A stretch of 64,000 nt of DNA, taken from sequence record OR539220.1, one strand, 5' to 3'. Numbering within the stretch: the first letter of the stretch is position 1; the number at the start of each line of letters is the position of its first letter. Shown here piece after piece: positions 2,424 through 53,132 of the stretch. Origin of the DNA: Escherichia phage vB-Eco-KMB40. The notes below the pieces were generated by a model, which did no database searches, had not been told where the DNA came from, and worked only from the letters and a program-made list of their open reading frames with translations. The position numbers and the translations under genes are program-made.

Positions 2424-2453
2424 ATTATACCACATCCTTGTGGTAAAGTAAAC
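2424..2453 (-). promoter_or_regulatory. early sigma70-type promoter (GTTTAC -35, TATAAT -10)
   Basis: minus strand GTTTAC at 2448-2453 and TATAAT at 2424-2429, 18 nt apart; upstream of rIIA.1/rIIA; 32 nt identical to promoter at 46641. Confidence 0.6.
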
Positions 2454-4270
2454 TACTGACTCATCCATTCTTTACGAAGGTCAGCATTATCTCCCATGAG
2501 CATTTCAAAAAGCTCTTTCCAGTTCTCAGGAAGTTTAACAACATCATATACTGGATTTTGAATCATCTCACGATATTCAGATTTTTCCAAAGAGCCAAGT
2601 CCCTTAATATAACGGATGCTATGTTTAGGTAGAGCATCTTTGGCACTCTCATATTCAGCGACTGTATAAAACCATTCTTGTTTTTTACCGACCTGAGCGA
2701 TGATTACAGGAGTTTTGACAAAACGAATTCGTCCTTGCTCAAACAATTCTGGCCAATTACTAAAAAATCCGAGCAAAGAAGGATAAATGCTTCCTAGACC
2801 ATCATGGTCAGCATCAGTCATAATAGCAATATTATGATAATTCAAGTTTTCAGCTTTTTCACCGAGAACTAATCCAGTGATTGCGCAAATATCAAATAGT
2901 TCTTTGTTTTTAAGCATATCTGCATAAGACATACCCCAACTGTTGAGAACTTTACCGCGCAATGGATAACCACCGTGAAGTTCTTTATCGCGAACATCAA
3001 TAAGATATCCGATAGCAGAATCACCCTCAGTCAAGAAAAGAGTAGTGTCAGCATCTTTACCACAAAGATTCGCTTTGATATGTTTATGAACCTTAGCTTT
3101 AGAAGCCTTTTTAGCTGCTTTAGTTTCTGCTGCTTTTTCTGCTGCCAATTTACGAGCCAAAGCAGCTTCAATAATTGGCATCAAAATTGCTTCATTATTT
3201 AGAATAGCACGTGAAATCTTTTTAGCATCAAGCTGAATATGACTACGGATTTCACCAAATGGAGAAGTCAAACGCTCTTTAGTTTGAGAATCAAATCGCA
3301 TGTTTTTCATATCACGAACAAACATAACGATAGTCAAACATTCTTTGACACGCGCTTTAGTTACATCAATTTTGAACTTACGTTTGATTTGTGGAATAAG
3401 GTCTTCACAAATATCATCCATAACACAGTCAATGTGATGGCCACCATTCTTAGTATGAATGTTATTGACGTATGTTAATTGACGAAATCCATCCGGTGAA
3501 CGACCAACCGCAATAGAACAATTTTCTTGTTCTTGAACAATAGCATGTTCATCATACTGTCGTGCATATTTCTTAAAATTGCCCTGAACCTTTTTACCAT
3601 TAAAGGTAAATTGAATATCAGGATAAACAACAGCAAGTGTCTGGAGACGATCTAATGTAATGTCAAGATAAACCTGAGATAGCTCATTAGTTTCAAATGA
3701 CATAAAATCAGGAATGAAAGTAACGCGAGTTCCTTTCCATTTTCCAGGAATATCTTCCCATGATTTATTTTCCATGCCATTTGAACAACGAACTACAATA
3801 TTATTTTGACCATCACCAGTTTCACCGACAAACATCACAGAAAAAATGTTTGTCAAACTAGAACCAACACCATTCATACCGCCGGTGACGCGTTCTTTAT
3901 CATCACCGAAGTTACCACCTGCTTTTGGAATAGTCCATGCAGCAACAGGACCAGGAATTTCTTCACCGGTAGGTGTTTTAACCATCGCTTGCGGAATACC
4001 ACGACCGTTATCTTCAACTGTTACTTGATTGTTTTTAATAGTAACATTAATTTTATTTGCGAATTTAAACTTAGTACGAATACCTTCATCTACTGAGTTA
4101 TCGATAATTTCATCAATAAGCTTAACAAGACCAGGTACATACTGAACACTTTCCCATTTACCAAACAGAAAGCGCTCATGCATTTCATTAGCAGAAGAGC
4201 CAATGTACATGCCACTACGCTTTTTGATATGTTCAATATCGCTCAGAATTTTAATTTCATTCTTAATCAT
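2453..4270 (-). CDS. 39: DNA topoisomerase II large subunit, unsplit (605 aa)
   Basis: GyrB-like ATPase motifs, N-terminus MIKNEIKILSDIEHIKKRSGMYIGS as T4 gp39; continuous ORF covers the part encoded separately by gene 60 in T4; track start at 4273 is GTG, ATG at 4270. Confidence 0.9.
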   Translation of the reverse strand: MIKNEIKILSDIEHIKKRSGMYIGSSANEMHERFLFGKWESVQYVPGLVKLIDEIIDNSVDEGIRTKFKFANKINVTIKNNQVTVEDNGRGIPQAMVKTPTGEEIPGPVAAWTIPKAGGNFGDDKERVTGGMNGVGSSLTNIFSVMFVGETGDGQNNIVVRCSNGMENKSWEDIPGKWKGTRVTFIPDFMSFETNELSQVYLDITLDRLQTLAVVYPDIQFTFNGKKVQGNFKKYARQYDEHAIVQEQENCSIAVGRSPDGFRQLTYVNNIHTKNGGHHIDCVMDDICEDLIPQIKRKFKIDVTKARVKECLTIVMFVRDMKNMRFDSQTKERLTSPFGEIRSHIQLDAKKISRAILNNEAILMPIIEAALARKLAAEKAAETKAAKKASKAKVHKHIKANLCGKDADTTLFLTEGDSAIGYLIDVRDKELHGGYPLRGKVLNSWGMSYADMLKNKELFDICAITGLVLGEKAENLNYHNIAIMTDADHDGLGSIYPSLLGFFSNWPELFEQGRIRFVKTPVIIAQVGKKQEWFYTVAEYESAKDALPKHSIRYIKGLGSLEKSEYREMIQNPVYDVVKLPENWKELFEMLMGDNADLRKEWMSQ

Positions 4271-4297
4271 CACTTATCCTCGTTTGGTTTCGGGAAT

Positions 4298-4340: not shown

Positions 4341-4600
4341 TATTTAAAACGGATAGTCGAATCCTTAAAGAACAGCCCAGAACATACTGTTCCTTCTACT
4401 TTCTGCCCAGTAGGTCCAATAGCACGAAATCCAGTATGCTGGAAATCATTTTCAGAGCAACCGAACCAATTATATCCAGTGATTTCAATATTAGTAAAAC
4501 CACTTGAAGACAAAACTTTAGTTGCATTATCAGCATCAGTACATCCTACTAAAGACACTACTAATACTAATGCTGCAATAGAACGATTAATATATTTCAT
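4340..4600 (-). CDS. predicted lipoprotein (86 aa)
   Basis: signal peptide with lipobox LVGC; in 39-cef interval. Confidence 0.5.
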   Translation of the reverse strand: MKYINRSIAALVLVVSLVGCTDADNATKVLSSSGFTNIEITGYNWFGCSENDFQHTGFRAIGPTGQKVEGTVCSGLFFKDSTIRFK

Positions 4601-4602
4601 AA

Positions 4603-4779
4603 TTACCCTTTAAGCAAGTCGTAAAATCCGCCATTCACATGCTTAGGAGCGGAAACTAACCGAATAGCAATCCGATGACAATCAGGACATACATCAGTAT
4701 CTCTTTCAGAAATTTTCTTGATTTTTTCGTATTCTTTTGCACAGTCTTTGGATTGACATTTATAATCATAAAGCGGCAT
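4603..4779 (-). CDS. zinc-ribbon protein (58 aa), not in ORF track
   Basis: MPLYDYKCQSKDCAKEYEKIKKISERDTDVCPDCHRIAIRL..., Cys pairs CQSKDC and CPDC; SD AAGGA before ATG at 4779. Confidence 0.5.
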   Translation of the reverse strand: MPLYDYKCQSKDCAKEYEKIKKISERDTDVCPDCHRIAIRLVSAPKHVNGGFYDLLKG

Positions 4780-5410: not shown

Positions 5411-5508
5411 TATAATTTCCTCATTAATTGAACAGTGGAGCGATGCGTTTCAAAAGAGTAGCAGCACCTTTAGCGAATTTTCATTTTATTCTCCAAGTTG
5501 TTTTCTGT

Positions 5509-5551
5509 ATCAGTAGTTGATATTGATATAGTACCATAATCAACTACTGAT
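5509..5551. repeat. 13-bp perfect inverted repeat around a promoter -10-like element
   Basis: ATCAGTAGTTGAT at 5509-5521 and ATCAACTACTGAT at 5539-5551, 17-nt spacer attgatatagtaccata. Confidence 0.7.
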
Positions 5552-5579
5552 GTATATAGTTTTATGAAAAATTTAAACT

Positions 5580-6144: not shown

Positions 6145-6687
6145 TTACTTCAAAATAGCTACCACCGCACTACGAGGTACTACACTAAAATCACCTGCAT
6201 GAACAACGTTCAGAAGTTCAACACCATCTTCAATCCACTGGTCTGTTACCCAACCACAGACCGAAATAAATGGAGTCTTGATAGCTACAGCACGAGTTAG
6301 AAGGTCGGTAGGGTCTTGTTCTTCAACTTCTTGGAACAGGATGAACTCATCTTCATAAACCAGGTTTTTCTTTATTTTGTTATTATCTAACCGGCGACCG
6401 TGGATGACGTAAGATTTGTCAAACCACTCACTTTTGGCAAATTCTTCAACAATAAATTCGCCTTCGCCAAAAACATCAGTCAGAGTTTTATGACCGGAAA
6501 TCAAGGCATTAGTTTTAATTTTAGGTTCAACCAGTTTGTAGGTTTTGCCGATTTCAATAGTGGTAGTCATAGTAGGTTCCTTAATTTCCAGTGGTTTAAC
6601 AGGGCATACATAAGTGCTTACAACATCAAAATCAATCAGTTTAGCTACCGGATTCGATATGTATTCAGGATTATAATTAAATTTCAT
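6145..6687 (-). CDS. MotB paralogue (180 aa)
   Basis: C-terminus VTDQWIEDGVELLNVVHAGDFSVVP resembles motB ITDQWVEDGVKLYNVVFLGTYKVIP. Confidence 0.5.
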   Translation of the reverse strand: MKFNYNPEYISNPVAKLIDFDVVSTYVCPVKPLEIKEPTMTTTIEIGKTYKLVEPKIKTNALISGHKTLTDVFGEGEFIVEEFAKSEWFDKSYVIHGRRLDNNKIKKNLVYEDEFILFQEVEEQDPTDLLTRAVAIKTPFISVCGWVTDQWIEDGVELLNVVHAGDFSVVPRSAVVAILK

Positions 6688-6689
6688 AA

Positions 6690-7190
6690 TTATCTCATTT
6701 CAATAAAATCTACAAGTTCAGCATGGGATTTACGGAACATTACCTGGCGTCCGCCAATGATAACTTCATCTTCAGGAACTTCATATACGGCGAGATAAAA
6801 TCCTTTAGAAGATAATTCTTCCCGCTCTTCTCGTGTGAACCATCTCATCATATCATATTCACTAGCGAAAGCAAAATGATAAAGAGCTATAAACCATCCT
6901 GGAATATGATATTCTACTCCAACATAATCTTTCTTGAACTTAGTATTAATTACTATATTAGCGTTTTTAACTAATAGTTTATCTTCGTGTGGTAAAGGAA
7001 TTCTTTTATTATCATCGCTATGATGCATAAAATTAGGTCTGTCATAACCTACGTGTAATAGCCACTCTTCGCTCCATGAATCTATTATACTCCTGTACGG
7101 CGTTATTTGAACACAAAGATTTCGACGTATTGTTATAGCATCTTCATAATCAAGAATACTAAACGATGATTCAACACGATAAATTTTCAT
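6690..7190 (-). CDS. hypothetical protein (166 aa)
   Basis: track ORF 6690..7229 trimmed to ATG at 7190 with SD GAGGA, because promoter -10 lies at 7218-7223. Confidence 0.45.
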   Translation of the reverse strand: MKIYRVESSFSILDYEDAITIRRNLCVQITPYRSIIDSWSEEWLLHVGYDRPNFMHHSDDNKRIPLPHEDKLLVKNANIVINTKFKKDYVGVEYHIPGWFIALYHFAFASEYDMMRWFTREEREELSSKGFYLAVYEVPEDEVIIGGRQVMFRKSHAELVDFIEMR

Positions 7191-7217
7191 TTTATTATCC
7201 TCAGTAGCTATGGTGTT

Positions 7218-7247
7218 ATAGTACCACAACTAACCGAGGAAGTAAAC
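7218..7247 (-). promoter_or_regulatory. early sigma70-type promoter
   Basis: GTTTAC at 7242-7247, TACTAT at 7218-7223. Confidence 0.5.
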
Positions 7248-14361: not shown

Positions 14362-14598
14362 TTAACCACCTATTTCTGTGGGCGTAAACATTGCAGCATT
14401 CTTAGTTTTCCAGTCAGCTGCATCAGAAACTACAGTAGAATATGCCGCCTTTTCAGAAGGAAAGGTCTGATAATGAGAATCTGCAATACGATGCTCGTTA
14501 GAATAGATTTCAAATGGAACAGAAACTTCCATACCTTTAACTTCTTTGCCTTCACCTGCTGGATGAGTAAAGGTCTTGATGTTAACGAAACCACCCAT
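14362..14598 (-). CDS. soc: small outer capsid protein Soc (78 aa)
   Basis: size and sequence consistent with T4 Soc; late promoter and SD AAGGAG upstream. Confidence 0.8.
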   Translation of the reverse strand: MGGFVNIKTFTHPAGEGKEVKGMEVSVPFEIYSNEHRIADSHYQTFPSEKAAYSTVVSDAADWKTKNAAMFTPTEIGG

Positions 14599-14629
14599 AA
14601 TAAACTCCTTTATTGTTTAATTACAGGTG

Positions 14630-14637
14630 TATTTATA
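14630..14637 (-). promoter_or_regulatory. late promoter TATAAATA for soc
   Basis: exact TATAAATA on minus strand about 32 nt upstream of soc ATG. Confidence 0.65.
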
Positions 14638-14639
14638 AC

Positions 14640-14780
14640 TTACAATTTAGCGGCTTTCCAGAGTTGTTCAATAATCTCTTGGTCTATTTCTTTAGTTATT
14701 TCATTACGTAATAAAGCAGTAAGGGCTTTCGCCCTTTTCTTATTCAACTTTTTGAGTTGACGTTTATTTAAACGAGACAT
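14640..14780 (-). CDS. hypothetical basic small protein (46 aa), not in ORF track
   Basis: MSRLNKRQLKKLNKKRAKALTALLRNEI...; ATG overlaps gene 56 stop; occupies soc-56 interval where T4 has segF. Confidence 0.4.
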   Translation of the reverse strand: MSRLNKRQLKKLNKKRAKALTALLRNEITKEIDQEIIEQLWKAAKL

Positions 14781-15298
14781 TAATAACCTCGGTCCTGACG
14801 AGCAAAGTTCTCGGCATTTTTCAGGTAATACAGTTTAAAGATTTCTTCTGCTGTAAGACCAAGACCTTGGAACATGTTCAGAACGAAATGGAGAATATCA
14901 ATCATTTCAAATTTAATTTCCAATTGGTCTTGTGGAGACAAATCAGTAATCAGAGTTTCACGGCGTTCACCATGCTGCGACTTCCAAGGTTTCCATACAG
15001 CAGATGCATCTTTTTCGCCGTTGCTCATACCACCAAGAGAAGTCAAAAGTTCGCGGAATTCATCATCAATATAATCTTTCTGATTGCGCAGCCAATCAAC
15101 AACTTCACCTGCAGTAGCCAAATCATCAGGATGACGGTTATATTCAGGTTTATCTTTAGCTAAACGAACCTGCAAAGATTTCTGCATATCAAGCATAACT
15201 TGCAGCGGGTCTTTTTCATCACCGAGAATATCCCAGTATTCATTTTGAGCTTTATCAGCGCCTTCGATCAGTTGTGAACATTCATTAAAGTATGCCAT
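14780..15298 (-). CDS. 56: dCTP pyrophosphatase (172 aa)
   Basis: N-terminus MAYFNECSQLIEG and length as T4 gp56; track ORF extends further upstream in frame. Confidence 0.8.
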   Translation of the reverse strand: MAYFNECSQLIEGADKAQNEYWDILGDEKDPLQVMLDMQKSLQVRLAKDKPEYNRHPDDLATAGEVVDWLRNQKDYIDDEFRELLTSLGGMSNGEKDASAVWKPWKSQHGERRETLITDLSPQDQLEIKFEMIDILHFVLNMFQGLGLTAEEIFKLYYLKNAENFARQDRGY

Positions 15299-15332
15299 TA
15301 TTTTTCCTTTCAATTCATGGATTAGTAGATTA

Positions 15333-15356
15333 ATTATACAATAAATATATAAAGCA
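15333..15356 (-). promoter_or_regulatory. candidate middle promoter (MotA box TGCTTTA, 11-nt spacer, TATAAT)
   Basis: minus strand TGCTTTA at 15350-15356, TATAAT at 15333-15338; upstream of gene 56. Confidence 0.45.
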
Positions 15357-15369
15357 ATAAGGAGGACAT

Positions 15370-15570
15370 ATGGTACAAAAATTAATGGCACTTATTAATG
15401 CCATAAAAGGTAATAAAAAGCGTATAGCTTTTACTATTTCTGCTATGGTAGGAATTTTACTCTGGAACTTTATTTTATCACCTGTTGCAATTGCGCATGG
15501 TATTAATATTCCAGTAGTTACTCTTGATACATTCGTAGATTTAGCATTTGCTTTAGTTGGGTTAATTTAA
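15370..15570 (+). CDS. small hydrophobic protein (66 aa), only convincing plus-strand gene here
   Basis: strong SD AAGGAGG 4 nt before ATG; two hydrophobic segments; fills the 56-61 intergenic gap; stop overlaps primase stop. Confidence 0.5.
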   Translation: MVQKLMALINAIKGNKKRIAFTISAMVGILLWNFILSPVAIAHGINIPVVTLDTFVDLAFALVGLI

Positions 15571-16595
15571 ATCTTAGCATATTTAGATAACCGCATTTTA
15601 GCCATCAACCCCTGGGCAATATTATTTTTCATATATTCCATAATTTGTTCAGGGGTTGCACCTTCCTTTCTAATCATATCATTAACATCTTTTGATTTCC
15701 AGGGAGATTTATCCCAAAACATAACCCTTTCTCCTGCATCAACTAATTTAGTCATTCGCTTAATAGTGTCAGGATGACGAGGTTCATTATCTAAAACCCA
15801 CACACGTCTATCTTTAAATGGAACAACTTCTAGGTCTAATTGACCACCCGTAATAGCTATACCATTTTCAATAAAAAGTGAATCTATAGGTCCTTCTAGA
15901 ACATATACATCGCCATCTTTAACTCGTTCGACTCCATATATTTTTGTTGCCTCAGGATAAGCCTTAATGGTGATATATTTTTGAGGAGCATCTTTCTTTA
16001 ATGCACGTCCTTGAAAAGACTCAGCTTTTCCATTAGCATTATAAATTGGAATAACAAGACGAGGCTCAGAAATTTCCTTTTTGTATGTTCCCGGTGCTAT
16101 GCTATTAACTAATTTAGGCCATTCGGTTGTAAACCAAAGATATTTCCATTTATCCTTTGGAATACAACGAGCTTTTACATATTTTATAATTGGATGGTCT
16201 TCCGCCAGTTTATCTAATCTAACGCATGACGGAAGAGATTTAATTATTTTCTTCTCAGGTTGTTTAGGAAGTTCTTTAGGTTTTTCTACTGGACGACTTT
16301 TACCTTTTTCTTTTCTTATTTCAAAGATATACTCACGATATAAATCAGGTTCAAACTCCTTTAAATATATTCCGATTGGCGCATGATAGTTACAGTTATA
16401 ACAATGAATATTTCCTTCATTATTATCACCATAATACCATCCACGAGCTTTATTCTGGTCGGTTTTTGAATCTCCACAAACAGGACATCTAAACCGCAAT
16501 TTAAAAGTTGAACTATTATTTACTTGTGTGAATTTAGGTAAATGAGCTAATGCACGGTATGCAAACTCATTATCAATCCAAGGTATTGATGACAT
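15567..16595 (-). CDS. 61: DNA primase (342 aa)
   Basis: zinc ribbon CPVCGDS...CYNC, 342 aa as T4 gp61. Confidence 0.9.
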   Translation of the reverse strand: MSSIPWIDNEFAYRALAHLPKFTQVNNSSTFKLRFRCPVCGDSKTDQNKARGWYYGDNNEGNIHCYNCNYHAPIGIYLKEFEPDLYREYIFEIRKEKGKSRPVEKPKELPKQPEKKIIKSLPSCVRLDKLAEDHPIIKYVKARCIPKDKWKYLWFTTEWPKLVNSIAPGTYKKEISEPRLVIPIYNANGKAESFQGRALKKDAPQKYITIKAYPEATKIYGVERVKDGDVYVLEGPIDSLFIENGIAITGGQLDLEVVPFKDRRVWVLDNEPRHPDTIKRMTKLVDAGERVMFWDKSPWKSKDVNDMIRKEGATPEQIMEYMKNNIAQGLMAKMRLSKYAKI

Positions 16596-16762: not shown

Positions 16763-17389
16763 TTAACCTCTATTCATAAAAGCATTAAAAATTTGGTCAT
16801 CAATAGAAACATTTACGTTAGACTGTTTTTCAGATGGCAATTCATATCCACATATTACAATTTTATGATCAATATCAAAATACACAGAAGCAATATGATT
16901 AATGATATTTTCAGTGAAGTCTAAATCGACATCAATATCTTTTTGACCACAGCCCAAAGGATAAATAATGCGAGTAATTCGATTATCTTTAACAAATATT
17001 CCACCGACATACTCTGTACTGCGTTTAAAGTCTACACGCCGACGAAATGAAAAATATTCAGGCTCTTTATGAGCTCGGCTCATAGGACACAACGAATAAC
17101 TAGAATAAGAGATGTCAAATCCTACGCCTTCGATATGAGCCAAAGTGTCATGATTAAACCAATTATAATCGTACGCCAAATCCATTAGATTATAATATGT
17201 AAAAGGCACCGGATTAACATCATTAGTCACAAGCATGTAATTAGCAACTGCTATAATTTCATTGTTTTTAACGAATACAAACCGTGATTGATGCGAATGA
17301 CCTGGACCCGCGTTTTCACGATTAATGATATAACACTGGGCACCTTTATATTTGTATGTATCTTTGCACTTGTGCATTTGATAGAGCAT
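16763..17389 (-). CDS. 61.2-position protein (208 aa); possible AdfA homologue
   Basis: 208-aa ORF downstream of primase; name by position and recollection only. Confidence 0.35.
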   Translation of the reverse strand: MLYQMHKCKDTYKYKGAQCYIINRENAGPGHSHQSRFVFVKNNEIIAVANYMLVTNDVNPVPFTYYNLMDLAYDYNWFNHDTLAHIEGVGFDISYSSYSLCPMSRAHKEPEYFSFRRRVDFKRSTEYVGGIFVKDNRITRIIYPLGCGQKDIDVDLDFTENIINHIASVYFDIDHKIVICGYELPSEKQSNVNVSIDDQIFNAFMNRG

Positions 17390-17682
17390 TATTCACCTAC
17401 CACTTCAGCGATGATATTTTTGTTATTAAAGTTTTTATCGCAATACAGAACATAATTATACTGCATTACACCACCAGACTTAAGCTGTTTTTGCACTTCA
17501 GCTTTCATTTCAGGACGATCGCGCTCAACAATATTCATAATATCCGCTTCAATTTGAGTTTCAACCTCAGTCTGATCAGCAGTCATAGACCATTCGCACA
17601 AATCTTTATCATAACCTGCCATAGCAGGCTGAGCAGCACAAGAAGCTAAAGCAAAAATTGTAGCAAAGATAAATTTTTTCAT
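17389..17682 (-). CDS. predicted lipoprotein (97 aa)
   Basis: signal peptide with lipobox LASC. Confidence 0.5.
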   Translation of the reverse strand: MKKFIFATIFALASCAAQPAMAGYDKDLCEWSMTADQTEVETQIEADIMNIVERDRPEMKAEVQKQLKSGGVMQYNYVLYCDKNFNNKNIIAEVVGE

Positions 17683-21198: not shown

Positions 21199-21252
21199 TC
21201 ATTTTTTCCATAGGCATCATTATATTTTCCTCACTGGTTAAAGATAGAGTAA

Positions 21253-22119
21253 TTATAACACAATAAATTTAGGCATAACTGCTATCGGATGAATAGCATT
21301 AAACTTATGAAATGCTTCTGATTTTTCTTTGCGCGAAACACACATGCGAAGAACCTTTAATGGCTCGTCTTCTTCACCCAACGATTTTCGTTTTTCGATA
21401 TTAGAAGTTTTCCAACGAGCTTGCTCTGGAAACTCTCTATTGATTTGCTCAAGCGCTCTATTATGTTTAGAATTACTACGAATTGAACTGCACCCGCCAG
21501 GAGCTTGTGCTTTTCCAGATACAACCAGATATTTGAACAAGGCCAAATGCGGATAACCTTGATTAATTAAATTGAGAAATGCATACATATCTTCGCATAA
21601 ATCAATTTTTCCATACCCAATTTGTTCTGTCGTAAGTTTTCCGAGGTCATACCATGTATTCGTGAATCCATATGAATTTTCACGATAATTACCCCAAGAT
21701 GAAGTAATTTTAAAAATAGGTAGACGAGCATGGCCATGATAATACCCGCAATCCATGGCATCTTCGACGTATTGAATCAATTCATAGAACTGTTCACGGG
21801 TTAATTGATTGACTTTATCTACACAACGACGGTCATCTCTTTTTCGCATTGAACTCATACGAATAGTAGTATCATCGTCAATCATCCAGATTCGTTGACC
21901 TGCATACATATCAGTAATTGCTTTACGAGTACCGGCAATTCCGTTTACATCATCAGGAATAGTTATAATTTTAGCTCTAGACCCATAGGCATCATAATAA
22001 GCTTTTTCTTCATGTTCACGCACTACAATATGGGGTTCATAATCAGTCGGAAACATATCAAGGGCAGAAACTGCCCCGACACGCTGATAACTTGGAATTA
22101 CGAATTGAATCATTTCCAC
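21253..22119 (-). CDS. GT-A-type glycosyltransferase at beta-gt locus (288 aa); possibly beta-alpha-glucosyltransferase
   Basis: between uvsX and 42 where T4 has beta-gt, but sequence unlike T4 beta-gt as recalled; DxD-like IDDDTT motif. Confidence 0.5.
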   Translation of the reverse strand: MEMIQFVIPSYQRVGAVSALDMFPTDYEPHIVVREHEEKAYYDAYGSRAKIITIPDDVNGIAGTRKAITDMYAGQRIWMIDDDTTIRMSSMRKRDDRRCVDKVNQLTREQFYELIQYVEDAMDCGYYHGHARLPIFKITSSWGNYRENSYGFTNTWYDLGKLTTEQIGYGKIDLCEDMYAFLNLINQGYPHLALFKYLVVSGKAQAPGGCSSIRSNSKHNRALEQINREFPEQARWKTSNIEKRKSLGEEDEPLKVLRMCVSRKEKSEAFHKFNAIHPIAVMPKFIVL

Positions 22120-23262: not shown

Positions 23263-23643
23263 TCACTTAGTCAAATTTTTTACACATGAATTATAAGAAT
23301 TCACTACATACTCCATCGGAGCATTTTTACCGGTACGCCATTGGTAATTATTAGCCCAATTAGCCCAAATTTCGGCGCAGTAGTTTTCAATTTTTTCTTC
23401 GCGTGTAATTACATCAGAATTACGATATGCTTGAGCAGATTCATCTGGACGAATAGCTTCGTCAAAATTCGCCTGCATTTGTTCTACTGTCTGTTTTGGA
23501 GCTTCTTTATAACACTTGACATTAGGATTATAAAATTTGCTTGAACAATTTACAATTTTTCCTACATCAGACTGATTTACTACCGGTCCTTGAGCTACAC
23601 AACCAGTAAGACCTAATGCAATAACCAAAATAGCGATTTTCAT
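23263..23643 (-). CDS. predicted lipoprotein (126 aa)
   Basis: signal peptide with lipobox LTGC. Confidence 0.5.
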   Translation of the reverse strand: MKIAILVIALGLTGCVAQGPVVNQSDVGKIVNCSSKFYNPNVKCYKEAPKQTVEQMQANFDEAIRPDESAQAYRNSDVITREEKIENYCAEIWANWANNYQWRTGKNAPMEYVVNSYNSCVKNLTK

Positions 23644-23653
23644 AATAATTTCC

Positions 23654-23902
23654 TCAAATGCAAGTAGTAATTACTCCAGTAGTGCTTATGCAGGTATTAC
23701 CCATTTGCACACCTAAAGATCCATTTGTATTCACATGAAGATTATCATCAATTTTAACTGATATTTTACCATTAGTGTGAATAACGGTGCTAGATTCAAT
23801 CACAGGTTGAGTATCATTTTCAACACTAACAAATGGAACTGCTGCTAATGCAACTAAACAAACTGCTAAGCATCCCATAATAATTTTCATTTTATTCTCC
23901 AA
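23654..23902 (-). CDS. secreted/membrane small protein (82 aa)
   Basis: N-terminal hydrophobic signal; SD GGAG. Confidence 0.5.
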   Translation of the reverse strand: MENKMKIIMGCLAVCLVALAAVPFVSVENDTQPVIESSTVIHTNGKISVKIDDNLHVNTNGSLGVQMGNTCISTTGVITTCI

Positions 23903-23924
23903 ATCCGTATTAGTTGATAGTTGT

Positions 23925-23954
23925 ATAGTACCATGGAAGAACAGTCTTGTAAAC
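23925..23954 (-). promoter_or_regulatory. early sigma70-type promoter
   Basis: GTTTAC at 23949-23954, TACTAT at 23925-23930; conserved TGGTACTATACAACTATCAAC block shared with promoters at 49613 and 51052. Confidence 0.55.
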
Positions 23955-24040
23955 AGTTTTGTGAAAATTTTTTAGGGAATTCTAAAGGTCCAGAATCATC
24001 TGTTTTTCATAAGTATAGATTTATATTACTTGTATGAAAA

Positions 24041-24058
24041 AGGGACCCGGAGGTCCCT
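24041..24058 (-). terminator. intrinsic terminator hairpin after gene 43
   Basis: AGGGACC-cgga-GGTCCCT, followed by U5 on transcript. Confidence 0.6.
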
Positions 24059-24070
24059 AGATTTATTCTA

Positions 24071-26845: not shown

Positions 26846-27214
26846 TTAATTACCAATCGTATATTTAGGAACGAGTTTCCATTCATGTTTTTGTTTAAAA
26901 GAAATAACTCGGAAGTTATTAGTTAAATCTTTCATAAAAGTTCTTTGTCCAGGAACGATTTCAATCAGTCCCCAATCTTCTAACAGCCATGCAATCGAAT
27001 CACGACGAACTTCATCTTCTTCTGTCATTTCAACTTGACGGCCATCCATACGAAGCATTTCTTTAAAATGAACGATATAGTATAGTCCTTTTTTCTGAAG
27101 AATATGACAGGACTGATACAGAACTTTATCTTTATTATTAGCAATTCCCATACGAGTCAAAGTTTCTTTTACTTTCAGAAAATCTTCAGGTTTTTTAAGA
27201 GTAATTTCAATCAT
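26846..27214 (-). CDS. regA: RegA translational repressor (122 aa)
   Basis: 122 aa, position between 62 and 43. Confidence 0.85.
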   Translation of the reverse strand: MIEITLKKPEDFLKVKETLTRMGIANNKDKVLYQSCHILQKKGLYYIVHFKEMLRMDGRQVEMTEEDEVRRDSIAWLLEDWGLIEIVPGQRTFMKDLTNNFRVISFKQKHEWKLVPKYTIGN

Positions 27215-30176: not shown

Positions 30177-31859
30177 TTAAACCATTACAGTAAATCGACC
30201 AACTTTCTTCATTTGAAGATGCTGACCATATTCTTGCGGGTCATGGTCTTTATGCGAAATTATAAAAACATTAGTGTTTTTCATTGAATTTATAATATTA
30301 GCTACACCTTTAATACCTTCGGCGTCAAATGACCCATCAAACACTTCATCGAGTATTAATGTACTAATACTAACACCAGATACAATAGAAGCAATATCAC
30401 GCCAAGTAAATAAAAGAGCAATATCAATTCTTGCCTTTTCACCTTCACTAAATGAAGCATAACTAAAATCTTCACGACCACGGGATTTAATTGTCTCATT
30501 AAATTCTTCATCTAATGTAAACACATAATCCGCTTCCATTATTTTAAGATAATGGTTAATCTGCTTATTAAATAATGGAATGTACTTTTTAATAATAGCA
30601 CCTTTAATACCAGAATCTTTGAGCATATCAGTCAAAATTCCTCGGTGATATTTTTCCATTACTAAATTAGTTTTTGTCTTAACAATTTTATCAAGTTCTT
30701 CTTGAAGCAGTGCTATTTCATCAGCATGGTCAATAAACTCAGAAGATGCTTTTTCTATAGCTGCTTTAACTTTTTTAGCTTTATCTACCGTCGTGATTAG
30801 AGATTGCTTTTTATTGCGAATATCATTTGCCAACGACTGCTGGGTTTTAATATTATCTCGGTATTCATCAACAAGAACTTTTAAATTATCACGATGTGTT
30901 GAAAGCTGTTCAAACGAATGCGTACATTCAGAAACTTTATCTTTAATTTTAGAAACAACTTTATCACCGGAACTTAATTGTGACAAACAGGTTGGACATA
31001 ATCCACCTTCGTGATACATATTAATGACTTTATTATACGAGTCAATTTTTGATTTAATTAAAACTGCTTCTTGACCGATTTTATTAAATGCATCAGTCGG
31101 GTCTTCGTCTAAAACAATATTAACTAATCTTTCATTAGCTTCTTCTATTTCTGATTTTAGCGTTCTAGCTTCTTTTGCCAAATCATCATACATATTTTGA
31201 AGACGAGTAAGGTTGTCACCAGTTAATTTTTTCTGGCGTTCAACGTTATCATTATATATTTTAATTTGTTGGATAATACTATCTTTTTTGACATCAAGCA
31301 CTTGGTTCTGCGAATTTAATTCACGTATTAGTGCTTTATTAAGCTTATCCATTTCAGCTAATGTTCCTACCTCAAGCAAGTCTTCCACAAGCTTTCTTCG
31401 CGCAGGGGTCGACAAACCCATGAAAGGGGTATACCCTGCTGTACCAAGGACAACAATCTGCTTGAAACTGGCATATGACATTCCGATAAGCTGTTCAAAT
31501 TCTGCTTGGAAATCTTTACTGCTGGCAGATTCATTAAGACGTGTACCGTTAACGGTGATTTCGAAAACGTTTGGTTTTTGTCCTCTTTTGATATAGTACT
31601 TTTTCTCATCATATTCCATCCACAGTTCAACTAAAAGTTCTTTCTTATTTGTGCTGTTTATTAATTGGCCTTTCTTTACATCGCGAAATGGCTTGCCAAA
31701 AAGCCCAAATGTGATGGCTTCTAGCATAGTAGACTTACCACCGCCATTTCGTCCAGTAATAAGAGTTTTTTGAACCTTATCTAATTGAATGTCAACTCCA
31801 TTTTGACCAACTGACATTATATTTTTATATTTTACTCTATTAAGTTTAAATGATTTCAT
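30177..31859 (-). CDS. 46: recombination nuclease subunit, Rad50/SbcC-like (560 aa)
   Basis: 560 aa, Walker A GRNGGGKST, coiled coil with CPTC hook; matches T4 gp46. Confidence 0.9.
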   Translation of the reverse strand: MKSFKLNRVKYKNIMSVGQNGVDIQLDKVQKTLITGRNGGGKSTMLEAITFGLFGKPFRDVKKGQLINSTNKKELLVELWMEYDEKKYYIKRGQKPNVFEITVNGTRLNESASSKDFQAEFEQLIGMSYASFKQIVVLGTAGYTPFMGLSTPARRKLVEDLLEVGTLAEMDKLNKALIRELNSQNQVLDVKKDSIIQQIKIYNDNVERQKKLTGDNLTRLQNMYDDLAKEARTLKSEIEEANERLVNIVLDEDPTDAFNKIGQEAVLIKSKIDSYNKVINMYHEGGLCPTCLSQLSSGDKVVSKIKDKVSECTHSFEQLSTHRDNLKVLVDEYRDNIKTQQSLANDIRNKKQSLITTVDKAKKVKAAIEKASSEFIDHADEIALLQEELDKIVKTKTNLVMEKYHRGILTDMLKDSGIKGAIIKKYIPLFNKQINHYLKIMEADYVFTLDEEFNETIKSRGREDFSYASFSEGEKARIDIALLFTWRDIASIVSGVSISTLILDEVFDGSFDAEGIKGVANIINSMKNTNVFIISHKDHDPQEYGQHLQMKKVGRFTVMV

Positions 31860-31874
31860 TTTGTATCCAATTGT

Positions 31875-32729
31875 TCACAATGAAGAAAATTCTTTAACTA
31901 AAGCCTGTAATGAAGCCTCTATTGGATATCCATTCTTAACTAACATTTTCCTAAACATCACATGTTTAGGACGATTATATGATATCCACAATTCATACAA
32001 TTTATCTTTATTATCCCAATGATAGCCTTTTCGTCGAGATGCTATATGAGCTTTTCTAATCTCCGGATTTTTCCAACTAGCAGCTACTGAATTTGATATA
32101 GCTATTTTATATTCAGGTTTTGATAAAGCAGCACGAACAGCCTTTTGGTGTTTAATTTTATTTTCTTCGTTATTAAACCATTCCCTTGAAGCCATTGAAA
32201 TTTTTTGTTTTGTTTTAAAATTATTTAATCTTTCTTTGTTATCTTTCCTATTTTTTGCTACTGAAAAATATTTTAATGCCCTTTCTCTAGCAGCATTTCT
32301 ATTTTGCGGATTTGAATAATACTGTTGAAGTCTTTTTGATATTGTGTCACTTACATCTTGTTTTATAAAACTATACTCAGCAGCTATTAAATCAACTTCG
32401 GCTAAAGATAAATTTTTATATGTTTTTCCTGACATCATTCTATTTAAAGCATTTAGCATTTTTCCATTTTTACCTTTTGCTAATAAGAAATGTGCTTTAA
32501 AATGATTAAAATGACTTAAATTAACTAAATTCCATGTAGATTTTAAATATTCAGGAAATATTGATTTAGGAAGCACGTGGTGTGCTTCCGTTTTACCTGG
32601 AGTTTTAACAGTTGAATTCATAGAAATAAAATTAATGTAAGACTTGGCGTCTTCTTCACTCAACGCTAATTTTTCAACTAATTCCTTTATTAAAAATTCA
32701 TCATTAATGTCAAGTTTAAAATTCTTCAC
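31875..32729 (-). CDS. free-standing HNH homing endonuclease (284 aa)
   Basis: HNH motif EAHHVLP...NLVNLSHFNHFKAH; lies between 46 and 46.1; starts with GTG overlapping 46.1 stop (GTGA). Confidence 0.7.
   Translation of the reverse strand: MKNFKLDINDEFLIKELVEKLALSEEDAKSYINFISMNSTVKTPGKTEAHHVLPKSIFPEYLKSTWNLVNLSHFNHFKAHFLLAKGKNGKMLNALNRMMSGKTYKNLSLAEVDLIAAEYSFIKQDVSDTISKRLQQYYSNPQNRNAARERALKYFSVAKNRKDNKERLNNFKTKQKISMASREWFNNEENKIKHQKAVRAALSKPEYKIAISNSVAASWKNPEIRKAHIASRRKGYHWDNKDKLYELWISYNRPKHVMFRKMLVKNGYPIEASLQALVKEFSSL
32695..32713. repeat. 19-bp direct repeat copy A (aattcatcattaatgtcaa) at 5' end of HNH gene
   Basis: identical to 32898-32916; both encode FDINDEF-type N-terminal codons. 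Confidence 0.8.
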
Positions 32730-32941
32730 AAAAGATTCCTTTTAATGTATCTTTTAGACCATTCTATCATATCATCATAATCTAAAAAGTATTCATCAAA
32801 TTCAGCCATGCAAACAACACCTTGTGCTGCTTTTGATGTGATATAAATTATTCCAACATATCTAGAATCTTCTTCGGTATAATCAATATTTGCTATGAAT
32901 TCATCATTAATGTCAAATGTCGAAAACTTCACAGTATGCAT
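32726..32941 (-). CDS. 46.1-position small protein (71 aa)
   Basis: ATG at 32941; N-terminus MHTVKFSTFDINDEF shares DINDEF with HNH ORF start. Confidence 0.45.
   Translation of the reverse strand: MHTVKFSTFDINDEFIANIDYTEEDSRYVGIIYITSKAAQGVVCMAEFDEYFLDYDDMIEWSKRYIKRNLL
32898..32916. repeat. 19-bp direct repeat copy B at 5' end of 46.1
   Basis: identical to 32695-32713. Confidence 0.8.
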
Positions 32942-35571: not shown

Positions 35572-35595
35572 TTAATATCCTCTTTGTTTTGGTTT

Positions 35596-38341: not shown

Positions 38342-38348
38342 ATTTTCC

Positions 38349-39614: not shown

Positions 39615-40085
39615 TTAATCATGTGTCCACACCCCATCGGTATTTGACCAAAGTCGCTGATTATCTGATCCTCGCCACAGCTTTTTAGTCGGAAGATTTT
39701 TCTCATACTTCCCATCAATAATAACATCAACATATTTAAGCATTTCTAGTTGTTTAATATCTTCAAACTTATATCCTGTCCACAACCAAATGCTTTTATT
39801 GGGATAAAGATTTTTAATAGTTTGAACCACAGAGTGAATCACGTCTCTGTTATCAGGATAAAGAGGGTCACCTCCGGTTATAGTCAATCCTTCTATATAA
39901 TCATTATTCAAACATTCAATTAATTGTTCTAGTGTTTCACCAGTGAATGGAACACCATTTCTAGCATTCCATGTTGATTTATTATAACACCCTTCACATT
40001 TATGCAAACACCCCGTAACGAAAAGAACGACCCTGCAACCAGGGCCATTCACAAAATCGCAAGGATAAAATCTATCATAATTCAT
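39615..40085 (-). CDS. nrdG: anaerobic RNR activase, radical SAM (156 aa)
   Basis: CxxxCxxC-type cluster CLHKCEGC; 156 aa as T4 NrdG. Confidence 0.85.
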   Translation of the reverse strand: MNYDRFYPCDFVNGPGCRVVLFVTGCLHKCEGCYNKSTWNARNGVPFTGETLEQLIECLNNDYIEGLTITGGDPLYPDNRDVIHSVVQTIKNLYPNKSIWLWTGYKFEDIKQLEMLKYVDVIIDGKYEKNLPTKKLWRGSDNQRLWSNTDGVWTHD

Positions 40086-41899
40086 TGGTGTTTAACCCTA
40101 TGCATGATTTCTTTATTTTTACCGAGATTAAATCCACGTTCGTTCGGATTTCCCAAATAACCACATGTTCTTCTTATTGTGTTCATCTTTTTAGGGTCAG
40201 TTTCTCCACAAATAGAACAAACAAATCCGTTTTCAGTAGGAGTCATTTCATGGGTACTTCCGCATGTAAAACATTTATCTACCGGCATATTAACACCAAA
40301 ATAATCTAAATGTTGTGCAGCATAATCCCAGACAGCCTCAAGACCCTTTAAATTGTTTTTCATATCTGGAAGTTCAACATAAGAAATGTGACCGCCTGTC
40401 GCAATGAAATGATAAGGCGCTTCACGAGAAATCTTTTCAAACGGAGTAATATTTTCTTCTACTGAAACGTGGAAACTGTTAGTGTACCAGCCTTTATCGG
40501 TAACATCTTTTACACTTCCATATTTTTCTGTATCAAGTTTACAGAAGCGATAACAAAGGTTTTCAGCAGGAGTCGAATATAAACTAAAAGCAAATCCGGT
40601 TCTTTCAGTCCACTGCTTAAGACGAGCATTCATTTTAGTTAAAATTTCTTGTCCAATATCACGACCGACAAGAATATTCAATTCATGAATACCAATGTAT
40701 CCTAAAGACACTGAACTTCTACCGCTTTTAAATAACTCAATTATATCATCATCAGGTTTAAGACGAACCCCGAATGCACCTTCTTGGTAAAGAATAGGAG
40801 CAACAGTCGCTTTAACTCCTTTTAAAGAACTAATTCTACACATCAAAGCTTCAAAACATAAATCCATTCGCTCATTGAACAATTCGATAAATTTCTGTTC
40901 ATTGAACTGTGTTCCAATATAAGAATCTAATGCGATACGAGGAAGATTCAGTGTTACAACACCGAGATTATTACGTCCATCAAGAATTTCATTACCAGTC
41001 GAATCTTTCCATACACCCAAGAAACTACGGCAACCCATTGGAGAAACAGGAATAGATGAACCTGTGATAGCTTTATTGTTCTTAGCCGAAATGATGTCAG
41101 GATACATTCTTTTGCTTGCACACTCTAGAGCAAGCTGCTTAATATCATAGTTCGGGTCGTCTTTATAAAGATTAACACCTTCTTCAACGAACATAACAAG
41201 CTTAGGGAAAATAGGAGTTATCCCATCACGACCAAGACCTTTAATACGATTTTTCAGAATTGCTTTCTGAATCATTCGTTCAGTCCAGTCAGTTCCCGTA
41301 CCAAATGTAATTGTTACAAAAGGAGTCTGTCCGTTTGAACTAAAGAGAGTATTTACTTCATATTCATAAGCTTGGAATGCATCGTATACATCTTTTTCTG
41401 TTTTAGATTGAGCATAATTCAACGCGTCAGTGATTTGCCATTTTTCTGCGTCCTCAATATGTTTTGCATAGGTGCGTTTAACATAAGGAGAAAGTACTTT
41501 ATCTACATTTGCAAAAGTCGTTCCGCCATATTGATGGGAAGCAACCTGTGCAGTAATTTGTGCCATAATTGCAGTAGCAACACCGATTGATTTAGGAGTT
41601 TCAATCTGTGCATTACCGAGCTTAAATCCGTTTTCAAGCATTCCTTTTAAATCTACTAAACAACAATTAGTAAATGGAAGAGCAGGGGAATAATCAATAT
41701 CGTGGAAATGGATAATTCCGCTTTCATGCGCTTTCATAATAAAAGACGGGACCATATTTTTGGCAATGTGTTTAGACACAATACCAGCCATAAGGTCCCG
41801 TTGAGTTGGAAAAACACGAGAATCTTTATTAGCATTCTCGTTTAAAAGGTCTTTATTAGTTTTATGAATCAATCCTTCAATTTCTTTTTCAATTGTCAT
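40082..41899 (-). CDS. nrdD: anaerobic ribonucleoside-triphosphate reductase, uninterrupted (605 aa)
   Basis: 605-aa continuous ORF, C-terminal Cys cluster; no intron interruption. Confidence 0.9.
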   Translation of the reverse strand: MTIEKEIEGLIHKTNKDLLNENANKDSRVFPTQRDLMAGIVSKHIAKNMVPSFIMKAHESGIIHFHDIDYSPALPFTNCCLVDLKGMLENGFKLGNAQIETPKSIGVATAIMAQITAQVASHQYGGTTFANVDKVLSPYVKRTYAKHIEDAEKWQITDALNYAQSKTEKDVYDAFQAYEYEVNTLFSSNGQTPFVTITFGTGTDWTERMIQKAILKNRIKGLGRDGITPIFPKLVMFVEEGVNLYKDDPNYDIKQLALECASKRMYPDIISAKNNKAITGSSIPVSPMGCRSFLGVWKDSTGNEILDGRNNLGVVTLNLPRIALDSYIGTQFNEQKFIELFNERMDLCFEALMCRISSLKGVKATVAPILYQEGAFGVRLKPDDDIIELFKSGRSSVSLGYIGIHELNILVGRDIGQEILTKMNARLKQWTERTGFAFSLYSTPAENLCYRFCKLDTEKYGSVKDVTDKGWYTNSFHVSVEENITPFEKISREAPYHFIATGGHISYVELPDMKNNLKGLEAVWDYAAQHLDYFGVNMPVDKCFTCGSTHEMTPTENGFVCSICGETDPKKMNTIRRTCGYLGNPNERGFNLGKNKEIMHRVKHQ

Positions 41900-51130: not shown

Positions 51131-52144
51131 TCATTTATAATAACTTCGGTGGTTTTCAAGATAGACCTTCTCAAGGAAGTCATCCCAGAAACTCATGTCT
51201 ACTTTTTGCTGCATACCGTTCTTAGAAGCTTCAGTAGATGCTGCTTCTACTTGATCGACCACATCTTCCAAAAACTCTTGAACTGTTTTAAATGGATGTT
51301 TACCCAACTTCACGTCGAGAATAAATGGAGCATCTTGGAGTGGATAAACCAAGTCACCAGTTTTGTAAATTTCCAATAGTTGGAGTCCACCACGACAAGC
51401 ATGACTCAGAGCTTTCCAGTCAATGCCTTCATTAGCTTCGGCTTTACGAGCACGTTCACCATATTCAGCATCTAATTTATTCAGTGACTGCTTAAGCTCA
51501 ATAAGAGAAAGTGTTGTCTGATATTTACGACCCAACACAGTGTAGAACGTTTGCGGGCCTGTTTTCTCGTGATTATGGAACACCCATTCACAGAATTCGT
51601 TTTCTGGAAGACGATGCTTAATATCTTCAACTTTAGTGCGACGCTGCTTAATAGAACCATCTTCTTGGTAATCAACCCATTGCTCGGGGATTTGATTAAC
51701 TACTTTCAATACATCACGTAATGCAGCCAAACGAGAACCCTTGACACCGTATTTAGAAGCTTGCTTGCGAACATATCCTAAATAGGATTTCATGTTAGTT
51801 GTATAAAAACGAGAACGGTTGTCTTGAATAAACTTCCACACATCAGGCAAATCAGATTTAACCACTAGTTCAGGTGGAGTGTGAAGCATATCCAATGCTA
51901 CAGTTTCACCATCTGCTGCTAATTTAAAGAAATATTTAAGACTGTATAGTTCATGGTCAATATCATCTTTAGTGTTTTTAGATGATGTGTTGTTAGTGTT
52001 TTTACTCATGTGCTCTTTGACATTTCCGATAAGAATATCACGAGCAGGAGGAACAAAAATTTCTTTAAAATCTACATCAGATTCTGGGGTAGAAGTTCCA
52101 TAAAGATGACTACCAAAATAGCTTTTCATTACTGTTTTCATCAT
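51131..52144 (-). CDS. Pol-beta-superfamily nucleotidyltransferase-like protein (337 aa)
   Basis: GS-x10-DVD signature in FGSHLYGTSTPESDVDF. Confidence 0.45.
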   Translation of the reverse strand: MMKTVMKSYFGSHLYGTSTPESDVDFKEIFVPPARDILIGNVKEHMSKNTNNTSSKNTKDDIDHELYSLKYFFKLAADGETVALDMLHTPPELVVKSDLPDVWKFIQDNRSRFYTTNMKSYLGYVRKQASKYGVKGSRLAALRDVLKVVNQIPEQWVDYQEDGSIKQRRTKVEDIKHRLPENEFCEWVFHNHEKTGPQTFYTVLGRKYQTTLSLIELKQSLNKLDAEYGERARKAEANEGIDWKALSHACRGGLQLLEIYKTGDLVYPLQDAPFILDVKLGKHPFKTVQEFLEDVVDQVEAASTEASKNGMQQKVDMSFWDDFLEKVYLENHRSYYK

Positions 52145-52614
52145 TCAGCCTTATATTCAATAACAGGACATACTTTAGCTTTACGAGCTTTTAAAAATTC
52201 AACGATAATCGATTTCTTGGGTTGAATAGGAGGTAAACCTTTATACGCCCTATCAATATTTTCTATGTGTAAAGCATAATCCTTTTTCCATTTATAATCT
52301 TTATATTTTTCATGCAAATGCGCAGGAATAACAAATGAACCGATAATAAGTAAAACAACCAAAAGCGCAAGTATAAATGCTGATGGAAGAAGAGTCCATA
52401 AACTACCGAAAATAAGCCAACGTTGTAGGCTTTCTGCACAAATAATTGTTAGACCTGCGAGTATAGTACATCCGAAAAAAGAAACGAAAAATGTAGGGAT
52501 AACAATAGACCAAAAGTATGCACACAGTGTCTTAGGTCGTTTCCATTCGTCGTTAAACAGTTTGAATAATTTATAGTGCCAAGAGTTTTCATTAATAATC
52601 ATAATTATAATCAT
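52141..52614 (-). CDS. membrane protein (157 aa)
   Basis: three hydrophobic segments. Confidence 0.5.
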   Translation of the reverse strand: MIIIMIINENSWHYKLFKLFNDEWKRPKTLCAYFWSIVIPTFFVSFFGCTILAGLTIICAESLQRWLIFGSLWTLLPSAFILALLVVLLIIGSFVIPAHLHEKYKDYKWKKDYALHIENIDRAYKGLPPIQPKKSIIVEFLKARKAKVCPVIEYKAE

Positions 52615-53132
52615 CCTTTCATTGAAGGTGTAACAGTTGTTAAATACTTAATCATAGCCTCAGCTTCTGATTTTGATAATGAAATTTCTCCATTGTTTTG
52701 ACGAATAGAAATAAAATCCGGATGACGGTCACCACCAGCTTTTAAAACACACATATAAGTATCAGTTTCATCTTCAATATTTGAAATGATTGAAGCAGTT
52801 CCACATGAATGCGGTTTTTGATAAATCAATACAGCTTTTCTTCCGCCATTTGACTGTTCATAAACTTTTAATACATCAAACAAATCACTTCTTTTATCAA
52901 TAGCTAAAATGTTATTTTCATCTTCAACGTTAAATCCTTCGGATACTTCATAAAGTGTTACCCATAAATCGCCAATATCAATAACAGCGTTCACTTTTCC
53001 ATGACTTTCAAGAGCATGACAAATTTTCTTGATTTCGTCATAACTCATTTTAATAATATCATCTCCTTGAATAAGAAAGATGTCATTTTTAAATTCAACA
53101 CGAATTAAACCACTTCCACTTGAAATAAACAT
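52611..53132 (-). CDS. hypothetical protein (173 aa), paralogue of the disrupted gene downstream
   Basis: C-terminus EAEAMIKYLTTVTPSMKG resembles EAIALKNYLDSVIPTMISK of 53139..53540. Confidence 0.5.
   Translation of the reverse strand: MFISSGSGLIRVEFKNDIFLIQGDDIIKMSYDEIKKICHALESHGKVNAVIDIGDLWVTLYEVSEGFNVEDENNILAIDKRSDLFDVLKVYEQSNGGRKAVLIYQKPHSCGTASIISNIEDETDTYMCVLKAGGDRHPDFISIRQNNGEISLSKSEAEAMIKYLTTVTPSMKG

Follow-up and report, generated by a model that had tools for sequence, protein, structure and literature searches.

The DNA analyzed here is a 64,000-nucleotide stretch of the genome of Escherichia phage vB-Eco-KMB40 (OR539220.1), hereafter the window. All of its long open-reading frames (ORF) lie on the minus strand, the first of them being rIIA (7-2184). 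Gene 39 is present as one unsplit ORF, nrdD is uninterrupted, and the single endonuclease gene of the window is an ORF located between 46.1 and 46, at a site where T4 has a clean junction and no such gene. The coordinates of these features, and of the other sites at which the window departs from T4, are collected in Table 1.

Table 1. Features of the window that bear on the comparison with T4 (window positions; ".", no strand assigned)
Feature	Position	Strand	Evidence and remarks
Gene 39, DNA topoisomerase II large subunit, unsplit, 605 aa	2453..4270	-	ORF list, tblastn, Pfam
65-bp stretch of gene 39, unoccupied MobA insertion/target region	2788..2852	-	Junction alignment to T4
soc-56 interval without segF	14599..14782	-	Holds just a 46-aa ORF, 14640-14780
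Gene 56 (dCTPase), T6-type allele	14780..15298	-	73% aa and 76.8% nt identity to T4; 74.6% nt to T2
56-61 intergenic region, dam (T4 16846-17625) absent, as in T6	15299..15566	.	Alignment; T6 annotation
uvsX/glucosyltransferase intergenic region, 54 bp, segA (T4 23570-24235) absent	21199..21252	.	Alignment; SegA tblastn not significant
T2/T6-type glycosyltransferase gene instead of T4 beta-gt	21253..22119	-	No T4 match; Pfam TAGT 1.2e-09; contiguous with T2 and T6
870-bp insert relative to T4 34966|34967, between 46.1 and 46	31842..32711	-	Junction alignment
284-aa Mob-family HNH homing-endonuclease-like ORF	31875..32729	-	PHROGs, tblastn, motif alignment
a-gt/a-gt.2 junction, mobB (T4 37885-38679) absent	35572..35586	.	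Alignment
nrdG/nrdD junction, mobC absent (622 bp in T4)	40074..40075	.	Junction alignment
nrdD, continuous 605-aa ORF without intron	40082..41899	-	Pfam NRDD 8e-171, residues 21-604; junction alignment; Rfam
Intron-insertion/I-TevII site region	41342..41371	-	7 differences in 30 nt relative to the T4 spliced junction
Two non-endonuclease ORFs instead of T4 mobD, as in T6	52141..53132	-	Alignment, Pfam, PHROGs

Results

Relationship of the window to T4, T2 and T6

Alignment with blastn against bases 1-76000 of the T4 genome (NC_000866) revealed that the whole window is colinear with T4 bases 6-68314, spanning the early-gene region from rIIA to e.3. The colinear blocks are interrupted by discrete differences, with 11 segments replaced or missing, and nucleotide identity to T4 ranges from 92 to 98% in most blocks, falling to 76.8% in gene 56 and 77.9% in denV. 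Since the window is colinear with T4 and yet only 92-98% identical to it, it can be assigned to Tequatrovirus, but not to T4. In agreement with this, megablast searches returned Tequatrovirus records, the top ones approximately 96-97% identical over 25 kb and none above approximately 97%, and identity to T2 and T6 is close to 95% over roughly 60 kb. Taken as sequence evidence, these comparisons support the classification of the window as a Tequatrovirus of the T2/T6 type. The original prediction of a T4 relative distinct from T4 itself is upheld by the whole-window alignments to T4, T2 and T6, in which the intervals that it named differ from T4.

T4 gene order is kept throughout the window, as would be expected if it came from T4 or from a laboratory derivative of T4 with its mobile elements deleted. 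Such an origin has, however, a negligible probability given the extent of divergence in most blocks and in gene 56 and denV, the ceiling of database identity at about 97% over 25 kb, the unrelated sequence that stands in place of beta-gt, ipII/ipIII, motB.1, 49.3 and tk.1/tk.2, and the loss of dam, and it is refuted by the whole-window alignment to T4.

The T6 genome (AP018814) likewise encodes an unsplit gene 39 (605 aa) and an intronless nrdD (605 aa), and it has in common with the window the dam-less 56|61 junction, the gene 56 allele, the glucosyltransferase gene replacing beta-gt, the two ORFs at the mobD locus and an intact 284-aa HNH gene between 46.1 and 46, which differs from that of the window by one residue. 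Unlike the window, T6 carries an 844-bp insert with a different endonuclease gene between nrdG and nrdD and extra ORFs near 39.1 and soc, and it lacks approximately 3 kb that are present in the window around 59-62 kb. T2 (AP018813) also has an unsplit gene 39 and an intronless nrdD, and is devoid of segF, segA, mobB, mobC and mobD; in contrast to the window, it possesses dam, its gene 56 is only 74.6% identical at the nucleotide level, and its 46.1/46 HNH gene contains a 2-bp deletion.

No match to Dam was found in the window with tblastn. The dam-less 56|61 junction is spanned in one place by 319 of 536 records, and in at least two of the sampled dam-junction records the span is obtained only when the two flanks are joined across an insert of approximately 650 bp, annotated in one case as a homing endonuclease. 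The idea that the absence of dam might be unusual was rejected, as T6 and around 60% of the matching records also lack this gene. The list of differences from T4 in the original prediction had omitted the absences of segA, mobC and dam, as well as the replacement of beta-gt and ipII/ipIII.

Gene 39

The gene 39 ORF extends over 606 codons from a GTG (2453..4273, minus strand), with an ATG located one codon downstream, at 4270, yielding a product of 605 aa that opens with MIKNEIKIL, as does T4 gp39. In tblastn searches, residues 1-473 of T4 gp39 map to window positions 4270-2852 with 98.5% identity and residues 27-160 of T4 gp60 map to 2857-2456 with 95.5% identity, head to tail with the gp39 part. 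Pfam analysis of the product identifies HATPase_c, DNA_gyraseB and TOPRIM_C above their cut-offs and a weak Toprim match below cut-off, all in one polypeptide. The length and position of gene 39 in the window are the same as in T2 and T6, and the unsplit junction, probed with a 301-bp sequence, is contiguous in 455 of 499 records, T4 strains belonging to the split minority. Gene 39 being unsplit, the whole large subunit of topoisomerase II is made as a single polypeptide.

At the junction between the gp39 and gp60 parts, T4 bases 2793-3910 (1118 bp, comprising the 50-nt bypass segment, 60.1, the mobA remnant and the element-encoded extensions) are matched by just 65 bp in the window, so that the T4 cassette of approximately 1.05 kb formed by the bypass segment, 60.1 and the mobA remnant is absent from gene 39. 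Neither gp60.1 nor MobA has a tblastn match at the gene 39 locus. Both the prediction of gene 39 as one 605-aa ORF and that of a missing gene 60 bypass and mobA were therefore correct, given the ORF list, the homology to gp39 and gp60 in one frame, the junction lengths and the negative tblastn result.

According to published work, the MobA element lengthens gp39 at its C terminus by some 43 aa beyond residue 472 and deletes about 64 nt, its insertion removes 55-75 nt of the gene, and T2 is the phage in which MobA nicking and insertion were shown (bioRxiv 10.1101/2022.08.31.505936). The junction observed here, with 473 aligned residues and a 65-bp stretch, matches this element anatomy. The MobA/gene 60 cassette was described by Bonocora et al. 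2011, according to the accounts given in bioRxiv 10.1101/2022.08.31.505936 and PMC2988022. Relative to that cassette the window has the exact recipient configuration: the ORF is continuous, the replaced segment of about 64 nt is intact, and the endonuclease, the terminal extensions and the 50-nt coding gap are all missing. Over the 101 nt around the MobA site, the window differs from T2 at two positions.

nrdD

The window junction 41361|41362 corresponds to T4 44814|45848, indicating that precisely the 1033-bp T4 intron with I-TevII is missing. Searches of the whole window with Rfam at gathering thresholds detected no group I intron, while the positive control, Intron_gpI in T4 nrdD, was recovered with 105 bits. 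In the absence of an intron, splicing is not needed. An uninterrupted match across the intronless junction is found in 619 of 691 records. That nrdD would be a continuous 605-aa ORF with no intron is thus confirmed by the exact junction, by an NRDD match running from end to end and by the Rfam result with its control.

The spliced nrdD junction of T4 is what we take to be the I-TevII recognition sequence, as in REBASE. The seven differences from T4 in the corresponding region of the window are all synonymous and form the densest cluster in nrdD, which has 81 mismatches over 1818 nt in the whole gene; the resulting allele is identical in the window, T2 and T6. Seven changes in 30 nt might reduce cleavage by I-TevII.

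Other T4 homing-endonuclease loci

All seven homing-endonuclease loci that T4 has in this interval (mobA, segF, segA, mobB, mobC, I-TevII and mobD) are empty in the window, and comparison of the alignment with the T4 annotation established that the seven T4-specific segments match the annotated endonuclease genes exactly. When the T4 seg, mob and intron endonucleases were used as tblastn queries against the window, the sole homologue retrieved was the 46.1/46 ORF. No significant homologue of the GIY-YIG enzymes SegA, SegB, SegF and I-TevII was obtained in the window, the best match having E=0.006 over 32 aa. The positions of insertion are consistent with those tabulated by Edgell et al. 2010 (Table 1; PMC2988022).

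The individual loci conform to this pattern. Between soc (14362-14598) and gene 56 (14783-15298), T4 bases 15610-16307 are unaligned (segF being T4 15606-16280) and SegF has no tblastn match in the window, bearing out the expectation that no segF-like ORF would lie between soc and 56. The absence of mob ORFs between a-gt and 55 and before rI, also anticipated from the sequence, is seen at the former in the lack of mobB, where window positions 35562-35587 bridge T4 37817-38679, and at the latter in the replacement of mobD with ORFs of 157 aa (PHROG 944, "membrane protein") and 173 aa (y05I-like).

Segments of the window that do not align to T4 were also inspected for endonuclease remnants (6257-6702, 14637-14817, 23643-23883, 37146-37400, 43348-43736, 52145-53114, 53273-53912, 56460-57024 and 61231-61841). 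Within them nothing resembling a remnant was found by ORF listing, with the larger ORFs compared to Pfam and PHROGs and the small ones assessed by eye.

A Mob-family HNH ORF between 46.1 and 46

The 284-aa ORF matches PHROG 655 ("homing endonuclease", 8e-45) and PHROG 12434 ("HNH endonuclease", 4e-15). Its tblastn alignment to T4 MobD covers 243 aa with 30% identity (E=6e-16); MobB (2e-06) and MobC (4e-06) are hit less strongly, and genes annotated as mobD and mobE in other phages are recovered as well. Multiple alignment with MobB, MobC and MobD reveals invariant positions following the pattern E-HH-P...NLV-L...H-AH-LL-K, with an atypical HH-N loop, and among PDB chains a profile built from the five-protein family picks up HNH domains in McrA (6ghc) and, at 5.8e-05, in a group II intron maturase (6me0). 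Analyzed alone, the ORF yielded nothing with Pfam at E<=0.01 and just noise at E<=10, reaching no HNH model, and phmmer against PDB sequences likewise returned only noise; the HNH assignment hence rests on the homology to Mob proteins, on PHROGs and on the family profile. The Pfam result carries little weight, because T4 MobD itself misses the HNH cut-off (18.1 versus 21.4 bits). As a statement on family homology and motif the HNH label holds, the protein being a candidate endonuclease. Of the original prediction of an HNH gene at 46/46.1 not present in T4, the insert and the Mob-family homology are real and the motif residues align, whereas the Pfam HNH model was not reached.

The T4 proteins MobB, MobC and MobD are similarly encoded by free-standing genes located between conserved genes, and have an N-terminal HH...N...H arrangement followed by a long C-terminal region. 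The 284-aa ORF differs from them in its insertion site, in some 20 extra N-terminal residues, in the substitution of FPEYLKSTW for the GG-DD loop between HH and N, and in having no detected NUMOD or HNH Pfam domain.

The ORF starts at the original GTG of gene 46, which is the T4 start, and the first six codons (VKNFKL) are common to both. The displaced gene 46 has acquired a new start, ATG AAA TCA TTT AAA CTT, in which ATG AAA TCA stands against GTG AAG AAT. Providing a replacement 5' end is the usual route by which free-standing endonuclease cassettes preserve the downstream gene.

The same 870-bp insert is present in 71 of 518 flank-matching records (about 14%), including RB51, RB68 and PP01, and also in T6 and T2. 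A protein at least 95% identical is encoded in approximately 70 records, and in 52 of the records searched with tblastn the aa identity is >=99%. Among close relatives, this locus is thus only sporadically occupied. A search of the literature turned up no relevant account of an endonuclease at 46.1/46.

Several of these features would also fit an inactive or domesticated relic, no longer working as a homing endonuclease: the absence of a Pfam HNH match even at E<=10, the replaced GG-DD loop, the restriction to merely 14% or so of relatives, and the interruption of some copies, namely that of T2, frameshifted by the 2-bp deletion, and apparently those of RB51 and G2133. Against this, the window and T6, like most of the 70 or so carriers, have a full-length ORF, the protein is nearly invariant in the 52 records mentioned above, it shares the catalytic HH, N and H positions with MobB, MobC and MobD, and the failure to reach the Pfam cut-off extends to MobD itself. 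We consider relic status a possibility of some weight, though clearly short of an even chance. It is also conceivable, with a likelihood only somewhat below even, that the protein is an active, uncharacterized homing endonuclease that would nick the 46.1/46 junction of phages lacking it, such as T4, that phages of the T6 type would thereby gain a local marker-exclusion advantage over T4 at the recombination-nuclease genes 46/47, and that the recoded start of gene 46 would provide self-immunity.

Discussion

The window almost certainly derives from a T2/T6-type Tequatrovirus that has an unoccupied allele at each site where T4 harbors a mobile element, plus one Mob-family HNH gene, with several of the empty sites being predicted targets of the T4 enzymes. 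No observation runs against this description. The prediction of a backbone lacking several T4 mobile elements is accurate for every element that it named, and segA and mobC are missing besides.

An unoccupied site may reflect a locus that was never invaded or the secondary, precise loss of an element once carried. Homing endonuclease genes are known to pass repeatedly through phases of invasion, decay and disappearance, T4 mobA is itself a remnant, and T2 has a frameshifted copy of the 46.1/46 HNH gene, all of which lend some credit to loss. The junctions, however, weigh against it. The 65 bp of gene 39 deleted by the MobA insertion are present here and nearly identical to T2, and simple excision could not restore them, because they are removed when MobA inserts. 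Moreover, the nrdD, mobB and mobC junctions are clean and common to hundreds of relatives, and neither the blastn alignment to T4 nor tblastn identified element remnants at the junctions. The same sequence would arise if an element were lost and the site then repaired from an unoccupied relative, so the two histories are not fully separable from the window; still, we regard secondary loss as improbable.

In a mixed infection with T4, several of the unoccupied sites would be targets of T4 endonucleases, as published T2 x T4 crosses suggest. Repair of the cut or nicked site by recombination with the T4 copy would then bring in the element together with flanking T4 markers, resulting in marker exclusion. 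The exclusion of T2 markers has been attributed to T4 endonucleases (Edgell et al. 2010, PMC2988022). Given that the recipient sequence at the gene 39 and nrdD sites is T2-like, the window phage is a plausible recipient, while cleavage by SegF is uncertain because its gene 56 has diverged strongly from the T4 and T2 alleles. Transfer could also proceed in the reverse direction: the Mob-family HNH gene, which sits behind the sixth codon of gene 46 and supplies a replacement 5' end for it, could home into phages that lack it, such as T4, at the 46.1/46 junction.

That T-even phages are polymorphic for the presence of homing endonuclease genes is already known and well documented, and the unusual homing-element load of T4 within its genus has been described since the 1990s. 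The importance of these observations lies mainly in annotation and classification. The apt annotation for this phage uses gene models of the T2/T6 type, in which gene 39 is a single gene, gene 60, dam and the nrdD intron are missing, and the glucosyltransferase is likewise of the T2/T6 type. Its empty sites make it a natural recipient for T4 homing experiments, for which hundreds of sequenced relatives would be equally suitable. The empty state is the commonest among Tequatrovirus at both gene 39 and nrdD, and T4 is therefore the exception; as the window illustrates, it is T4 that is the unusual member of the genus in its load of homing elements.

Intervals at nrdD, gene 56 and gene 46

The densest cluster of mismatches between the intronless nrdD of vB-Eco-KMB40 and its T4 counterpart lies at the intron insertion / I-TevII site, where 30 nt hold 7 differences, all of them synonymous, and where both T2 and T6 carry an allele identical to that of the window. 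This cluster could have arisen through co-conversion in T4 or through resistance in intronless phages. The neighboring nrdG/nrdD interval differs among these genomes, with mobC in T4, an endonuclease gene in T6 (positions 40432-41166 of the T6 sequence, L004) and nothing in the window; the T6 gene is probably the segH of Sandegren et al.

Features of the vB-Eco-KMB40 window and the evidence attached to them
Feature	Position	Strand	Remarks
179-aa ORF adjoining the 180-aa MotB-like ORF	within 6145-7229	-	PHROG 1106, function unknown
180-aa ORF, C-terminus MotB-like	within 6145-7229	-	Pfam motB 3.6e-08; PHROG 2333
Gene 56 (dCTPase)	14780-15298	-
56/61 interval lacking dam	15299-15566		genes 56 and 61 adjacent, as in T6
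288-aa glycosyltransferase	21253-22119	-	Pfam TAGT 1.2e-09
240-bp insert relative to T4	23654-23902	-	imm.1/gene 43
Near-duplicate (18 nt) of the gene 46 5′ end	31842-31859 and 32712-32729	-
Identical 19-nt stretch, two copies	32695-32713 and 32898-32916	-
Intron insertion / I-TevII site stretch in nrdD	41342-41371	-
157-aa DUF7412 protein	61231-61704	-
Similar short intergenic sequences	5471-5574, 23881-23984, 49595-49643, 51011-51104		whole-window alignment to T4

Gene 56 is the target of SegF in T2 x T4 crosses. Its divergence in vB-Eco-KMB40 is far above that of its surroundings, with a nucleotide identity of 76.8% to T4 and 74.6% to T2; in T6, by contrast, the gene lies inside a contiguous block with 95.4% identity to the window. 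The adjoining interval, as aligned to T4, is missing the DNA adenine methyltransferase gene dam, which is present in T4 and T2, and a tblastn search with Dam as the query detected no homologue across the whole window. The resulting adjacency of genes 56 and 61 is identical in T6, and the junction is spanned in one place by 319 of the 536 matching records, although in at least two of the sampled records this holds only once two pieces flanking a roughly 650-bp insert are joined; the absence of dam is therefore common.

Two short repeats mark the Mob-like ORF, the 284-aa Mob-family HNH gene between 46.1 and 46. The 19-nt stretch TTGACATTAATGATGAATT, which codes for DINDEF, occurs once in this ORF and once in gene 46.1, equally offset from the two start codons, and the alignment score of the N-terminal peptides of the two genes was matched by 1 of 2000 shuffles. 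The repeat may be a trace of cassette assembly or insertion. The second repeat is an 18-nt near-duplicate, of which the upstream copy, GTG AAG AAT TTT AAA CTT, forms the present start of the endonuclease ORF and the downstream copy, recoded as ATG AAA TCA TTT AAA CTT, the start of gene 46. In T2, a 2-bp deletion breaks the copy of the Mob-like gene (32898-33750 of the T2 sequence, L003) into two separate ORFs.

Small insertions and intergenic repeats

The imm.1/gene 43 insert carries an ORF of 82 aa whose N-terminus is hydrophobic; an ORF occupies this position in T2 too, but not in T6 or T4. T2, T6 and most close relatives hold about 370 bp of extra sequence with one ORF between 39.1 and 39.2 (window ~4598-4604), a segment that both T4 and vB-Eco-KMB40 lack. 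Separately, four intergenic sequences of roughly 50-100 bp each resemble one another and also several T4 intergenic regions at about 27000-27100, 55314-55403 and 70613-70737; presumably they resemble the repeated early-promoter/stem-loop cassettes of T4-type phages.

Gene replacements relative to T4

The motB.1/motB.2 region of T4 is replaced in part, and ipII and ipIII give way to the DUF7412 protein. The N-terminus of this protein matches the opening residues common to IpII and IpIII (MKTYQEFIAEA...), which makes it a probable internal head protein of another kind that carries their capsid-targeting leader. Alignment to T4 and the Pfam match likewise reveal an unrelated glycosyltransferase in place of the T4 beta-glucosyltransferase. 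Its gene aligns contiguously with T2 and T6, which suggests a hydroxymethylcytosine sugar modification of the T2/T6 type in this phage.
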